Assembly (NCBI GenBank): GCA_963723235.1 | Contig: CAVRPV010000011.1 | Coordinates: 129,177-193,176 of the forward strand | Length of the DNA stretch: 64,000 nucleotides | Direction: 5' to 3' | Source of the DNA: an uncultured delta proteobacterium | GTDB lineage: Bacteria > Desulfobacterota > WTBG01 > CAIYCZ01 > CAIRTM01 | Shown: one piece after another, positions 190-62,761 of the stretch | How the letters are laid out: the number at the start of each line of letters is the position of its first letter | Numbering within the stretch: position 1 is the stretch's first letter | Program-made: the position numbers and the translations under genes | The notes under the pieces: generated by a model | The model's input: the letters and a program-made list of their open reading frames with translations, nothing else | What the model was told of the DNA's origin: nothing | The model's database searches: none

Positions 190-314
190 CAGGCTGTTGA
201 AAAACACCCATCTGCTGCGTTGTGCTTATCATTCGTCTTTGCGGCGTACGGCACAGTACGCCTCATTCCTCATGATTGCGCACGCCTTGCATGTGTGCGT
301 TTTTGAACAGCCTG
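190..314. repeat. ~125-bp near-palindromic intergenic element, copy 1
   Basis: Termini are CAGGCTGTTGAAAAA ... TTTTTGAACAGCCTG, with a central hairpin GCGGCGTAC-loop-GTACGCC. It is near-identical to the copies at 45393, 52551 and 62619. Confidence 0.85.
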
Positions 315-358
315 TATAATAAGATTTTTTCAACACCCTGGTAGAGAGCAGACCCGGT

Positions 359-16974: not shown

Positions 16975-17037
16975 GGCTTCTCCTTTAAAAATGGTTTATG
17001 TGCTATGATAACGTGATTTATTGGTTTTTTTTAAATT

Positions 17038-17253
17038 TGTAGGCCGGACTAAATCCCGCAGGGCGGGATGAGTCCGGCAGTTTTGCATTGTCTTTTTGTG
17101 CCGGACACGCTGCGCTTTGTCAGGCCTACAATGCCACGGTTTCCAACCTGTCAAATTCGACCAGTAAGCATTGTAATGTAGGTCGGACTAAACGAATGAT
17201 CCGGCGGTTATCAACCTTATTGCCGGACACGCTGCGCTTTGTCCGGCCTACAA
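17038..17253. repeat. REP array (four hairpin units plus conserved linker)
   Basis: TGTAGGCCGGACTAAATCCCGCAGGGCGGGATGAGTCCGGC; GCCGGACACGCTGCGCTTTGTCAGGCCTACAA; linker tgccacggtttccaacctgtcaaattcgaccagtaagc; TGTAGGTCGGAC...; GCCGGACACGCTGCGCTTTGTCCGGCCTACAA. Confidence 0.9.
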
Positions 17254-17320
17254 ATGTTTCATAACGTTTAGTTCATTTCTGGCGTTTACCTTAGCTGTCC
17301 GGCATATGAGAATCCGCCAT

Positions 17321-17839
17321 CTATTCAAAATCCATATCCTGTGTGGATTGGGGCACAGCCGAGCCCCAATTGTTTTCATACAAACCCTGCTTAACAGCTT
17401 GCTTAAAAGAACTGTGCTCCCACTCTATCGGCCTTTGCACATATCCATGCTTTACCGGATTATAATGAATATAATCCATATGCCTGCGCCAATCCACATC
17501 ATCCCGGATCAGATGTTCCCAAAAACGCGGTTGCCAAACAGCCTTTTCCCGGCGCGCATTGCATTCCGCAGCAATGCCGACAGAAAAGAACCTCTTTATC
17601 ATCATCCAGCGTGTGGAAAAATCATGGTCTTTGCCGGGCAGCGTCCATATGCAATGAAGATGATCCGGCATTACCGCGATAGCATCAATTTCAAAAGGCC
17701 TTTTTGCCATGACATGTTTCAATGCGAGCCGGAGCCGTTCAACCGCATCTTTATTGGTCAATAAATGTCTGCGGCCATGTGTTACAACGGTAAAAAAGTA
17801 ACAGCCTCCGTCCGCATATGCCCTTTTATAGATACGCAT
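17321..17839 (-). CDS. REP-associated tyrosine transposase (RAYT, IS200/IS605 Y1-like)
   Basis: Intact 172-aa ORF. HUH motif in MPDHLHCIW and catalytic Tyr region YIHYNPVKHGYV. REPs lie on both sides. Confidence 0.9.
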   Translation of the reverse strand: MRIYKRAYADGGCYFFTVVTHGRRHLLTNKDAVERLRLALKHVMAKRPFEIDAIAVMPDHLHCIWTLPGKDHDFSTRWMMIKRFFSVGIAAECNARREKAVWQPRFWEHLIRDDVDWRRHMDYIHYNPVKHGYVQRPIEWEHSSFKQAVKQGLYENNWGSAVPQSTQDMDFE

Positions 17840-17881
17840 GATATTATTTTCTTATGTGTCCGTTATTTGTCACCCATTATT

Positions 17882-18057
17882 GCCGGACATGCTGCGCTTT
17901 GTCCGGCCTACAATGCAACGATTTTTAACTCGTCAAATTTGAGCAGTAAGAATTTTAATGTAGGCCGGACTAAATCCCGCAGAGCGGGATGAGTCCGGCG
18001 GTTTTTTTATGTGTCAACCATTATTGCCGGACATGCTGCGCTTTGTCCGGCCTACAA
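17882..18057. repeat. REP array (three hairpin units plus conserved linker)
   Basis: GCCGGACATGCTGCGCTTTGTCCGGCCTACAA; linker tgcaacgatttttaactcgtcaaatttgagcagtaag; TGTAGGCCGGACTAAATCCCGCAGAGCGGGATGAGTCCGGC; GCCGGACATGCTGCGCTTTGTCCGGCCTACAA. Confidence 0.9.
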
Positions 18058-18093
18058 TAATCAATGCCTTCAGGTTCGTTTCCGGCTTTTACC

Positions 18094-44907: not shown

Positions 44908-45394
44908 AGAGCCTGATATACGGTCCGTGCTGGCTGCAGCATACGCGATGCTGGCCCGCAGTCCGCACAGCCGCGCGCAGGTGCTCGCAAAACTGGAGAG
45001 CAAGGGTTTTGCGGGCGAGCTGATCGAGGACTGTGTGAAGCGCCTTGACGAGCTCGGGTATCTTGATGACGCTCAGATTGCCCGGCGCTGGGCCCAGGTG
45101 ATGCTGCGCGAGCGCTGCTGGGGGATATTGAAGGCCGAGCAGCAGCTGCAGCAGCGCGGCATCGAGCGCGACCTTGCCCGGCAGGTTCTGGCTGAAGCTC
45201 AGCAGGCATTTCCGCAGATAGACGGCGCCCGGAAGGCTGTGGCCGGGCGTTTCAGTGACCGGACAGCGGATATACCGCTCGCCAAGGTTGTTAATTTCCT
45301 GCGCTCGCGCGGTTTCAGCAGCGAGGTGGTGTATCCGGCAGCGCGGGAGTGGGAGAAGAACAAAACCGGGCATGAGCCTGATATCGAAGAATAG
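44891..45394 (+). CDS. recX: RecX regulatory protein
   Basis: 167-aa ORF overlapping the recA stop. Helical-repeat pattern ([24 protein letters not shown]...). recA-recX synteny. Confidence 0.8.
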
Positions 45395-45515
45395 GCTGTT
45401 GAAAAACGCACATCTGCTGCGTTGCGCGCATCATTCGTCTCTGCGGCGTACAAAAAGTACGCCTCATTCCTCATGATATCGCGCGCCTTGCATCTGCGCA
45501 TTTTTGAACAGCCTG
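45393..45515. repeat. ~125-bp near-palindromic element, copy 2
   Basis: AGGCTGTTGAAAAACGCACATCTGCTGCG...GCGGCGTACAAAAAGTACGCCTCATTCCTCATGA...TTTTTGAACAGCCTG. It abuts the recX stop. Confidence 0.85.
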
Positions 45516-45609
45516 TATGTGAAGATATTTTTAACGTCGGGTAAAACGCGCCGGCAACTGCAAAAAAGTTTAATGGTGCGCACGGCACACCCTACGCTCT
45601 TCATAACAA

Positions 45610-51581: not shown

Positions 51582-52535
51582 GGCTGCATGCGCTCCTGGT
51601 CGCCTATGAGCTGAATGAAAATTTCTTCCAGCGTCATGGCATCCGGTCCCAAAGCACGCAGGGTCCAGCCGCCCTCGTATCACGCAGCGGGCCAGTTCAT
51701 TTACTACCTGCGCGCCCGGTTCTGTTTCCAGCGTGAAGGCTGCTGATACGCTGTTTTTATTGTGTGCTGGACGCACTGCACATACACCGTCAATGCGGGC
51801 CAGGGCCGCGGCAATGTCAACGGCCGGGCCGTCGGCTTCCAGGTACAGGCGCGGTATTTTCTGAATACGCTGAACAAGATTGGCGGGTGTGTCCAGGGCC
51901 AGTAAACGGCCCTCGTAGATAATGATCACCCGGTCGCAGGTCATGCTGACTTCGGGCAGGATGTGCGTGCTGAGGATAACGGTTTGGCTGCCGCCAAGAC
52001 CTTTAATCAGGTTGCGGATATCGGCAATCTGGCGGGGGTCAAGACCCACGGTCGGTTCATCCAGAATCAGAACCTCCGGATTGCCCAGCAGGGCCTGGGC
52101 AATGCCGACCCTCTGGCGATACCCCTTGGAAAGCATGCCGATCATGCGGCGCGCATGGGTTTCAAGTCCGCAGCGCTCAATTGCCTCGGCAACGCCTGCT
52201 GCGCGGGCCCGGCGCGGCACGCCCTTTATCTCGGCAAAAAAATTGAGATAGCCTGTCACGGTCATGTCGTGGTACAGGGGCACGCTTTCGGGCAGGTAGC
52301 CTATCGAGCGGCGAACGGCAAATGGATCCTGCAGGATATCATGGCCGCAGATGCGGGCTGTTCCGCTGGTGGGCGGGAAAAAACAGGTCAGGATGCGCAT
52401 GGTGGTGGTTTTGCCGGAACCGTTGGGGCCCAGAAATCCCATGATCTCGCCCTTGTTGATATGGAAGGAGATGTCCTGAATGCCGCGTGAGGGGCCGTAT
52501 GTTTTTGTCAGATGGTCGACTTCAATTGCGGGCAT
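51578..52535 (-). CDS. ABC transporter ATP-binding protein (one frame interruption near 51660)
   Basis: Walker A GPNGSGKTT, signature LSKGYRQR, Walker B LILDEP. The corrected C-terminus is GGWTLRALGPDAMTLEEIFIQLIGDQERMQP*. Confidence 0.9.
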
Positions 52536-52550: not shown

Positions 52551-52681
52551 CAGGCTGTTGAAAAAAGGCCATCTGTCCCGCTGGCGTTGCGTTTGTCATG
52601 CGTCATTGCGGCGTACGGAAAAGTACGCCTCATTCCTCATGACTGCACGCGCCTTGCATCTAGCCATTTTTGAACAGCCTG
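52551..52681. repeat. ~125-bp near-palindromic element, copy 3
   Basis: CAGGCTGTTGAAAAAAGG...GCGGCGTACGGAAAAGTACGCCTCATTCCTCATGA...TTTTTGAACAGCCTG. It begins 16 nt upstream of the ABC ATPase start. Confidence 0.85.
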
Positions 52682-52914
52682 TTAAAAAAGATTTTTTAAC
52701 ATCCGGTAGTGGTCTGATCCGGGCTGCGGTCATCGCAAAGGAAAAATTTGTAGCATGTCCGCGGGGTTGTGTCAATCTGCGGGCGCCTTTTGGCACGCAT
52801 CGCATCGGATCGCAATCGATGGTTTTAAAAAAGCCGATCCCGATAGCATGTCCGATCGCCGGATCTGTCAATGGGATTTCTCAGCTCAGGGCGGCTTCTT
52901 TTGCAAAGACCGTG

Positions 52915-54645: not shown

Positions 54646-55560
54646 ATGAAAAAAGACGTTTCAATTCTAATTGTTGATGATGAAGAGAACGCCCGGGATA
54701 CCCTGGCGGAACTGCTGGCCGGGGAAGGCTACGCAGTGTGTGGAGTCGATTCCGCTGCCGCTGCCCTGGAAATTATCGGGTCAGGTTCCTATGATCTGGT
54801 GATAACAGATCTGGTCATGCCCCGCAGTGACGGTATCGTTCTTACCAGGAATATCAAGAGCCTGGGCATTGATATTCCGATTATCGTTGTCACGGGATTT
54901 GCGACCATTGAATATGCCGTGGAATCGATGAAGGCCGGTGCTTTTGATTTCATCACCAAGCCGTTTAATTTTGAACAGGTCAAGCTCACGATTGAAAAGG
55001 CGTTTGAAACCAAACGGTTGCGCCAGCTTGCGAGTGAAAGTGAGTTTTACCGGCAGCTTTCAAACAGCGATGAACTGACCCAGCTTGCCAATTACCGCTC
55101 TTTCCATGAGATTTTTCAACATGAGATTGACCGCGCGCTGCGCTATGACCGGCCCCTGGCTCTGCTGATGATCGATATCGATGATTTTAAAAAATGCAAT
55201 GACACCTACGGGCACCTGACAGGTGATGCCGTCCTGAAGCAGATGGCCGTTCTTATAAAAAAGAATTCGCGCGGATCTGATTGTGTCGCCCGCTATGGCG
55301 GTGAGGAGTTTTTCGTAGTTCTGCCCGAAACGGTCGAGCCCCATGCACTGGTGGTTGCCGAGCGCATGCGTACCGAAATTGAGAGTCATGTTTTTCTGGA
55401 TGAAAACCAGCAGCCGATTTCAAGCCTGAGCGTGACAATCGGCATTTCCTCCCTGCCTTTGCGGGCTATCAATAAACGTGACCTGATCAGAACCGCTGAT
55501 TTTGCCCTCTACCGGGGCAAGGCTGCCGGTAAAAACTGCGTGATGTTATTCGAGGAATAA
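54646..55560 (+). CDS. response regulator receiver - GGDEF diguanylate cyclase
   Basis: REC domain (ILIVDDEEN...DLVITDLVMP) followed by a GGDEF domain with an intact RYGGEEF site. Confidence 0.9.
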   Translation: MKKDVSILIVDDEENARDTLAELLAGEGYAVCGVDSAAAALEIIGSGSYDLVITDLVMPRSDGIVLTRNIKSLGIDIPIIVVTGFATIEYAVESMKAGAFDFITKPFNFEQVKLTIEKAFETKRLRQLASESEFYRQLSNSDELTQLANYRSFHEIFQHEIDRALRYDRPLALLMIDIDDFKKCNDTYGHLTGDAVLKQMAVLIKKNSRGSDCVARYGGEEFFVVLPETVEPHALVVAERMRTEIESHVFLDENQQPISSLSVTIGISSLPLRAINKRDLIRTADFALYRGKAAGKNCVMLFEE

Positions 55561-56709: not shown

Positions 56710-56751
56710 ACATATGTCCTTTCCGGCAAAAACGTTTTGATTGTTGACACA

Positions 56752-56866
56752 CTCGTAAAAAGTCCGGATGCTGCGTTGCGCTTCATCCTCAGTCATTGCG
56801 GCGTACAGCACGTATGCCTTATTCCTTCGGATGTACGCGCCTTGCCTGCGAACTTTTTACGAGCGT
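56752..56866. repeat. divergent copy 4 of the near-palindromic element
   Basis: The same core GCGGCGTACAGCACGTATGCCTTATTCCTTCGGATG..CGCGCCTTGCC but different termini CTCGTAAAAAGT...ACTTTTTACGAG. It lies in the tal 5' region. Confidence 0.6.
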
Positions 56867-56922
56867 TTCTGAATTAATGGTTATTTTCTGACTTTTTACG
56901 ACTTCATCAATTGTTGACCGGT

Positions 56923-62576: not shown

Positions 62577-62618
62577 GCAGAGCCGTGTCCAACAGGGGAA
62601 CGAAAAATTTTCTGTGTA

Positions 62619-62743
62619 CAGGCTGTTCAAAAAATGCGCAGATGCAAGGCGTGCGATATTGTGAGGAATGAGGCGTACTTTCCGTACGCCGCAAAGACGA
62701 ACAATGAGCGCAACGCCGCAGATGTGCTGTTTTCAACAGCCTG
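62619..62743. repeat. ~125-bp near-palindromic element, copy 5 (inverted relative to copies 1-3)
   Basis: CAGGCTGTTCAAAAAATGCGCAGATGCAAGGCG...GGCGTACTTTCCGTACGCCGC...TTTTCAACAGCCTG. It lies between nadK and recN. Confidence 0.85.
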
Positions 62744-62761
62744 CTAAGGGATGCAGGAGCC

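Follow-up and report, generated by a model that had tools for sequence, protein, structure and literature searches.

What is the near-palindromic element that directly follows the recX gene in the genome of an uncultured delta proteobacterium, and why are its copies oriented as they are? The element lies in a stretch of 64,000 nucleotides (hereafter the window) taken from contig CAVRPV010000011.1 of assembly GCA_963723235.1, positions 129,177 to 193,176. The original prediction, made from the letters of the window, described a ~125-bp repeat at positions 45393-45515 with four further copies, and proposed either a miniature inverted-repeat transposable element (MITE) or a structured RNA. The first half of this proposal stood. 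A structured RNA as the main reading did not, although the hairpin covaries and its complementary strand folds better. The repeat belongs to a superfamily of MITEs that share a conserved hairpin core, and its orientation is linked to replication in some lineages.

The genome under study, G000, comprises 2.82 Mb in 20 contigs, and the window corresponds to C11:129177-193176. It was compared with its congener G001, with G030 from another family of the same class, with G031, a closed Desulfosarcina chromosome, and with the further carrier genomes G018, G075 and G266.

Repeat unit and copy number

All five copies proposed for the window were found at their places, with a mean column identity of 79% in their alignment. 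The alignment bore out the terminal inverted repeats and the conserved TCATTCCTCATGA, as well as the central motif. The pattern GCGGCGTAC-N(5-6)-GTACGCC had four matches in the window and none in 100 shuffles, so that the loop measured 5-6 nt and not the 4-5 nt first given. Five copies was the right count for the window, but the genome holds about 150. An nhmmer profile built from four close window copies matched 153 places, about 110 of them near full length, at a density of one per 18 kb.

The unit is also longer than predicted. A flank alignment of 78 copies and their consensus gave the layout of what we call type 1: a left arm L (CAGGCTGTTGAAAAA), an imperfect hairpin core of ~95 nt, an inner right arm R1 (TTTTTGAACAGCCTG), a spacer of about 11 nt (TATAAAAAGAC) and an outer right arm R2 (TTTTTCAACAnCCTG). 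The ~125-bp unit had ended at R1, but most copies run on through the spacer to R2, giving a modal L-to-R2 length of 151 bp plus a 4-bp duplication. R2 is complementary to L except for the variable base n, and R1 has one fixed G/C mismatch to L. The center of the core is invariant, with GCGGCGTAC-loop-GTACGCC followed by TCATTCCTC. In G018 and in some G030 copies, R1 carries GACCAGCCTG in place of GAACAGCCTG, which brings its mismatches to L to two; R2 remains complementary. No orientation bias was detected in G018.

The generic features of a MITE are present: terminal inverted repeats (L and R2), a short length, about 150 copies and no common reading frame. Similar peptides in the open reading frame (ORF) track had been regarded as probably no more than conserved DNA, and 1-nt differences in loop length indeed break any common frame. 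A small peptide on the bottom strand (ATG AGG AAT GAG GCG TAC...) was rejected as its frame shifts between copies through the same differences.

Insertion sites and mobility

The flanking 4-mers were identical in 37 of 137 parsed copies (8/59 in G000, 11/22 in G001, 7/27 in G030 and 11/29 in G018). Most duplicated 4-mers were TTAG, CTAG, CTAA or TTAA, that is YTAR, and the target logo extended to CT-YTAR-AG. Non-canonical 4-mers were perfectly duplicated as well (CTGG/CTGG, CTAT/CTAT, ATAG/ATAG, GTAG/GTAG). The 4-mer has outer bases that change together on the two sides; it is therefore a true 4-bp duplication, neither a fixed TA nor a part of the element, which ruled out a TA-only, Tc1/IS630-like parse. 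Insertion takes place at YTAR, where a staggered cut leads to the 4-bp duplication.

Insertion differed between the two congeners. For at least 5 of 20 G001 copies, the orthologous G000 site has no copy, and one G001 copy was clearly orthologous to a G000 copy (L034 with C17:232068). A single alignment was clean enough to show the filled and the empty state. It lies at an orthologous stop codon, where G000 has a single TTAA (window 55557-55560, plus strand) that holds the TAA stop of a response-regulator/GGDEF gene, and G001 has CTGA, a 151-bp type-1 element and CTAA (locus L042). The duplication, the empty orthologous site and the presence/absence differences between congeners identify the element as a non-autonomous DDE-type MITE. 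With the terminal inverted repeats, these results gave substance to the "MITE-like" of the original prediction.

The target also explains the frequent contact with gene ends. TAA or TAG can be read in YTAR on both strands, and among 63 long G000 copies, 20 had a left duplication that served as the stop codon of a long ORF. With these stops in YTAR, and with intragenic insertions lost, many of the copies that survive lie exactly on stop codons. Across four genomes, L was flush with a stop codon 49 times, R2 only 16 times. Position 4 of the duplication was G in 70% of copies, and position 1 was T or C about equally. The imbalance of stop contacts and the asymmetric duplication positions indicate that the two ends are not equivalent to the transposition machinery.

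Orientation relative to replication

In G000, the top strand of the element (L...GTACGCCTCATTCCTC...R2) lay on the G-rich strand in 127 of 136 copies (p = 8e-28), as revealed by nhmmer calls compared with local GC skew. A second, independent orientation call, based on an asymmetric 16-mer motif, gave 92/102 concordant copies (p = 9e-18). Nearly all copies within each contig point one way. Concordance by score class was 95, 93, 91 and 86%, highest in the most consensus-like copies. We take the G-rich strand to be the leading strand because of the gene-strand excess and because skew is positive on the right side of dnaA in G030.

Neither gene direction nor the outer right arm accounts for the bias. 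The upstream gene was co-oriented with the element in 80 cases and opposed in 56, which mirrors the 57% of genes on the G-rich strand, and gene direction was therefore ruled out as a cause. Copies without R2 were as biased as long ones (18:1), so that a dependence on R2 was excluded too. Three other repeat families of G000 were unbiased (5/11, 8/20 and 10/21). Two classes of repetitive extragenic palindromes (REPs) were also unbiased (13/24 and 7/16), and one class gave 14/18.

Other repeats in G000 include a ~90-134-bp palindrome starting CCGTTCGCCCTGAGC (e.g., C12:20008-20141), a 79-bp double hairpin starting GTCATTCCGGCGCAGGCCGGAATC (e.g., C11:35145-35223) and a ~200-bp repeat (e.g., C10:3626-3824). 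The three further families have 11-21 copies each and no orientation bias.

The bias was also seen outside G000. On contig C1 of G030 (1.27 Mb), the skew changes sign near 950 kb, and 11 plus copies before and 2 minus copies after the switch were all concordant (13/13). Beyond C1, 16 of 24 copies were concordant, which gives 29/37 for G030. In G001, neighboring copies were co-oriented 20:7, and 12 of 14 were concordant by synteny to G000. We did not find a description of a replication-linked orientation bias of >90% for MITEs in the literature searched.

A copy-free zone of ~300 kb surrounds a converging, terminus-like skew switch in both G000 (C10, ~71-372 kb) and G030 (C1, 886-1168 kb). About 16 copies would be expected in the empty zone of G000. 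The G000 contigs C10, C17 and C20 have a lower G+C content (51% vs 54%).

Hairpin structure and covariation

The predicted imperfect pairing of the two halves is real, with a hairpin of roughly 41-43 pairs. In 48 copies from four genomes, 91.2% of the cells pair on the top strand and 95.8% on the bottom strand. The stem pairs covary, as a check for compensatory changes revealed: changes on both sides were seen in 17 pairs and 75 cells, compared with 6.8 and 21.2 in shuffles (0/500 reached the observed values), with the caveat that related sequences may score above shuffles even when there is no structure. In slid controls, the counts stayed at or below 9 pairs and 15 cells. In 52 G000 copies, compensated double changes numbered 103 and uncompensated ones 15. 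The covariation was concentrated in the inner stems; the arms vary little. Template switching from arm to arm in near-palindromes could yield paired changes without selection.

The excess of C-A and A-C mismatches noticed in the window turned out to be general. Mismatches on the top strand of the 48 copies were A.C in 112 and G.T in 20 cases, in all four genomes and in different columns per lineage. An A.C on the top strand is a G.T on the bottom strand, and the bottom strand therefore folds better. Mean DNA hairpin energy was -27.3 kcal/mol for the top and -29.3 kcal/mol for the bottom strand, and the strand difference with DNA parameters was about 2-4 kcal/mol.

Subfamilies and distribution

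The window copy that had been regarded as divergent is indeed a related element, but it belongs to a sister subfamily (type 2) with other arms. It spans 56746-56909 (plus strand) and combines the core of type 1 with L GACACACTCGTAAAAAG, R1 CTTTTTACGAGCG and R2 GACTTTTTACGACTTCATC, bracketed by a perfect 6-bp duplication ATTGTT (56740-56745 and 56910-56915). The ends of type-2 elements are GACnCACTCGTAAAAAG and CTTTTTACGAnnTCATC. In G075, type 2 has L GACGACTTCGTAAAAAG, an imperfect R1 and an R2 that is the exact complement of L, with AT-rich duplications of 6-7 bp. A third type of arm (GAGCCTGTCCCAAAA), accompanied by a CTAG duplication, was found in G266, where some copies have a nested GC-rich hairpin. 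At the G266 loci L264, L265 and L267-L269, the left core half is interrupted by this hairpin (GGGGAGCCTGCCCCGGCGAAGGCCGGGG), which looks like a second small nested element.

Across the subfamilies, the L-core-R1-spacer-R2 layout and the core are kept, the arms and the cut spacing differ, and the core is more conserved than the arms. One core with different arms and duplication lengths indicates a conserved module carried by at least two transposition systems. In G000, concordance with skew was 104/110 for type 1, 11/12 for type 2 and 26/31 for unclassified copies, and no orientation bias was found in G075, which is rich in type 2. Two transposition systems with one bias in G000 and none in other hosts point to a bias that goes with host and core rather than with a single transposase.

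The family is common in sulfate-reducing and syntrophic bacteria. The exact 25-nt core was found in >119 contigs, from carriers including Desulfosarcina cetonica JCM 12296, Desulfococcus, Desulforapulum, Smithella, Syntrophales, Syntrophobacteraceae, Desulfobulbaceae, Desulfurivibrio and Desulfatiglandales, and also in some metagenome-assembled genomes of Nitrospirota and Rokubacteriota. In an even sample of the phylum, 47/401 genomes and 29/254 genera had the core, with large separate expansions. Elements in G000 and G001 were 86-93% identical, and the flanking genes 65-85%. This patchiness and high identity suggest horizontal spread and recent bursts.

Search for a parent transposase and for known classes

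No cognate autonomous element with matching ends was found in scans of PF01609 loci, 119 named loci and IS701. PF01609 (DDE_Tnp_1, the IS4/IS5-type DDE domain) had no match in G000, G002, G022 and G030, all of them rich in copies. In 31 related genomes, none of the 30 best PF01609 loci was bounded by the arms, and two insertion sequences (IS) examined in G001 had ends unrelated to the arms. A lone arm pair, 0.6-3.5 kb apart, turned up among the 119 named loci and enclosed no transposase. IS701 (NF033540) gave nothing above cut-off in 6 copy-rich genomes. The duplication follows the YTAR rule of the IS5 type, whereas neither shared ends nor co-occurrence with DDE_Tnp_1 was found in the four genomes named above, and membership in a particular IS family was not confirmed. 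Given that no resident transposase was found, the G000 copies are probably relics of past bursts.

The original prediction did not recognize the repeat as a named element, and our searches agreed with it. Rfam gave 0 matches at the gathering score across the 64 kb, and one copy gave chance-level matches only (E > 2). The plasmid collection had no blastn match. In a full-text literature search, the arm and core sequences did not occur, and nothing relevant was found on MITEs in these taxa.

Two further classes were considered. G000 has an intact gene for an IS200-type TnpA (155 aa, C2:1435-1902), which adjoins an ORF fragment of an rve-type transposase, and the window has a gene for a REP-associated tyrosine transposase (RAYT; 17321-17839, minus strand, 172 aa) with inverted GTAGGCCGGAC REP pairs on both sides (17030-18060). 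Neither gene adjoins a copy of the element. The RAYT and the GTAGGCCGGAC REPs form a classical REP/RAYT unit, unrelated to the hairpin MITE. An integron attC site would share the folding asymmetry between strands; yet the copies are scattered at one per 18 kb, have target duplications of their own and form no arrays, and this candidate was rejected.

Explanation of the orientation bias

As a whole, a DDE-type MITE combined with a replication-linked filter on its folded strand is the best explanation, and one that we hold to be probable on balance. Taken on its own, the filter is a plausible proposal about which we are nearly evenly divided, leaning slightly to doubt. With the G-rich strand taken as the leading strand, the same sequence is that of the lagging-strand template. 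There, a filter dependent on the host lineage would act on the folded single strand: a copy exposing its better-folding strand on the lagging-strand template would be lost quickly or would never become established. We favor such a filter because the surviving orientation puts the weaker-folding strand where replicating DNA is single-stranded, because the bias follows host and core, and because both subfamilies share it. In E. coli, Trinh and Sinden reportedly observed in 1991 that asymmetric palindromes are deleted on the lagging-strand template in an orientation-dependent manner.

A more far-reaching version is possible, and we offer it tentatively. The ~95-nt core may be not passive filler but a portable module that folds on one DNA strand and whose fold interacts with the replication fork, so that in some host lineages only one orientation could be inserted or kept. 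If so, the core module would be a duplication-generating, non-coding element that senses replication polarity.

Several observations weigh against the filter. No bias was detectable in four carriers, namely G018 (15/31), G031 (13/23), G266 (26:21 for neighbor co-orientation) and G075 (13:13 and 7/16), where GC skew is weak and a moderate bias could be hidden; these four have the same strand asymmetry as G000. The most consensus-like copies are as strongly biased as older ones, and recent G001 insertions are concordant in 6 of 7 cases. With young copies equally biased, the filter would have to act faster than sequences diverge. The two strands differ little in predicted DNA hairpin energy (by about 2 of 28 kcal/mol), 19 G000 copies with a better-folding top strand are not flipped, and the orientation exceptions are without a reversed folding asymmetry. 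A simple thermodynamic filter was rejected, as per-copy strand energies do not predict the exceptions and per-genome energies do not track the bias cleanly. Furthermore, replication direction was inferred from GC skew, with no dnaA in the G000 assembly, and the parent transposase was not found among the loci scanned.

A serious rival, though one that we judge rather unlikely, is insertion guided by the replication fork. An asymmetric transpososome, with one site at L and two at R1/R2, would be led to the fork, for example by the beta clamp or by lagging-strand discontinuities, as with Tn7 TnsE, and new copies would enter in one orientation from the start. The strong bias of the most consensus-like copies (95%) and of the recent G001 insertions fits this well. 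So do the target logo, which is asymmetric relative to the element, the 49 stop contacts of L against 16 of R2, and the L-core-R1-spacer-R2 asymmetry kept in subfamilies with unrelated arms. Replication-linked IS orientation and beta-clamp binding by transposases were both reported by Gomez et al. 2014 (PMC3971601). However, two G000 subfamilies with different arms and duplication lengths, and probably different transposases, share one bias, the same subfamilies are unbiased in G018, G075 and G266, and copies lacking R2 are equally biased (18:1).

A structured RNA as the main function, be it a 3′ untranslated region stabilizer, a terminator or a small RNA, would explain spread or retention of the repeats by their role in RNA. 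We consider it improbable. The covarying stem pairs, the G.U-compatible asymmetry on one strand in four genomes, the many copies directly after stop codons and the conservation of the core across the phylum are in its favor, though covariation in a near-palindrome can also come from template switching without selection. The orientation of the copies is independent of the genes (49 tandem-sense, 39 tandem-antisense, 31 convergent and 17 divergent), and at sites flush with stop codons the mRNA mostly carries the weaker-folding top strand. The named copy, behind recX, has no sigma-70-like promoter or intrinsic-terminator pattern, no Rfam family matched, and the duplications and presence/absence polymorphism show mobility.

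We find it quite improbable that the repeat is a polar chromosome element selected by the host, with its core read one way by the replication or segregation machinery as a priming signal or in the manner of Chi or KOPS. An orientation bias of 90+% is typical of polar chromosomal motifs, and such a role would suit a core better conserved than the arms, elements more alike between G000 and G001 (86-93%) than their flanking genes (65-85%), and the lack of copies around terminus-like skew switches. On the other hand, most carrier lineages are unbiased, the family is patchy in the phylum (47/401 genomes), copy positions are mostly non-orthologous even within the genus, and the G/C skew of the element itself runs counter to that of its host strand.

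Finally, single-strand HUH/Y1 mobilization, with an IS200/IS605 TnpA or a RAYT acting on hairpins of the lagging-strand template, is scarcely credible and was rejected: bias and hairpin architecture do resemble IS200/IS605 elements (PMC5027513), and the genome encodes one IS200-type TnpA and one RAYT, but HUH transposition makes no duplications such as the perfect 4-bp (type 1) and 6-7-bp (type 2) ones of variable sequence seen here, the RAYT has GTAGGCCGGAC REPs of its own on both sides and not the hairpin MITE, and the IS200 copy is nowhere near an element.

Copies and neighboring genes in the window

The first type-1 copy (190-340, plus strand, 151 bp) consists of L at 190-204, the central hairpin at 241-262, R1 at 300-314 and R2 at 326-340. 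It is flanked by a perfect GTAG duplication (186-189 and 341-344, plus strand), and the TAG of the left duplicate (187-189) is the stop codon of the upstream ORF 1-189. The contact with a gene end that had been predicted here is real, but the 62-aa fragment named murI was not identified as such.

The second copy, behind recX, covers 45392-45541 (plus strand), with L at 45392-45406, the central hairpin at 45443-45463, R1 at 45501-45515 and a decayed R2 at ~45528-45541. Its target duplication is no longer recognizable. The recX stop codon TAG (45392-45394) is made of the first three bases of the element, where other copies read CAG. As the first element bases form the stop, the present end of recX depends on the insertion. 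Contact with this gene end had also been predicted, and the stop in fact lies inside the element.

The third copy (52551-52706, plus strand, 156 bp) has L at 52551-52565, the hairpin at 52608-52629, R1 at 52667-52681 and R2 at 52692-52706, with an internal insertion of 6 nt. Its L is situated 16 nt upstream of a minus-strand ABC transporter gene, counted from the start codon at 52535.

The last type-1 copy (copy 5) is inverted (62593-62743, minus strand), with R2 at 62593-62607, R1 at 62619-62633, the hairpin at 62672-62692 and L at 62729-62743. On the element strand, its duplication reads TTAG/TTGG (62744-62747 and 62589-62592). As predicted, it is placed between an NAD kinase gene, whose stop (62576) is 16 nt away, and a RecN-like gene, whose start (62762) is 18 nt away. 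It is among the few copies oriented against local GC skew.

Significance and comparison with known systems

Orientation bias of whole IS is known, but it is confounded by selection on the direction of the transposase gene. A non-coding element with a bias of >90% removes this confound, and the family could show how replication polarity shapes the insertion or survival of hairpin DNA. The core is conserved across the phylum while arms and duplication length change, which inverts the usual MITE pattern and suggests that the core has a job. In practical terms, draft genomes of some uncultured Desulfobacterota have their replication strand marked by the family, which also explains many apparent oddities at gene ends (stop codons that the element makes or frames, for instance) and often causes contigs to break in these metagenome assemblies.

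A close parallel is with MITEs of the IS5-family type, which share the 15-nt terminal inverted repeats, the 4-bp YTAR duplication, and the small, non-coding, high-copy and intergenic character. YTAR is the target rule of IS5. In contrast to these MITEs, the element described here has no matching IS among those found and a doubled right end (R1, R2); its internal core and not its arms is most conserved, and its sister subfamily differs from it in the arms and in a duplication of 6-7 bp.

Correia/NEMIS of Neisseria and ERIC of enterobacteria are likewise abundant intergenic repeats of 100-160 bp with inverted ends and long hairpins, often beside genes. Their sequences are unrelated to the element, and Correia duplicates TA, whereas the element duplicates 4 bp. 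To our knowledge, no replication-linked orientation bias has been described for Correia/NEMIS or ERIC.

Within the same phylum, Chunjie, a MITE from Geobacter uraniireducens Rf4 (Chen et al. 2008, summarized in PMC10969869), resembles the element, so far as that summary goes, in its conserved inverted ends, direct repeats, many intergenic copies and size variants. According to the same summary it is 178-235 bp long, compared with 151 bp here, and the comparison is one of descriptions only.

Hairpins and a strong orientation bias relative to replication are shared with IS200/IS605 and REP/RAYT, which make no target duplication and need a Y1 transposase, unlike the element, which has duplications. 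Regarding the bias itself, the replication-biased IS surveyed by Gomez et al. 2014 (PMC3971601) are a close counterpart. In that survey, orientation was correlated with replication direction in several IS families, and IS5a-type and other transposases bound the beta clamp; IS5 subgroups were rarely biased in Proteobacteria, and the word MITE does not appear. The survey dealt with full-length IS carrying transposase genes, whereas the biased element described here is non-coding.

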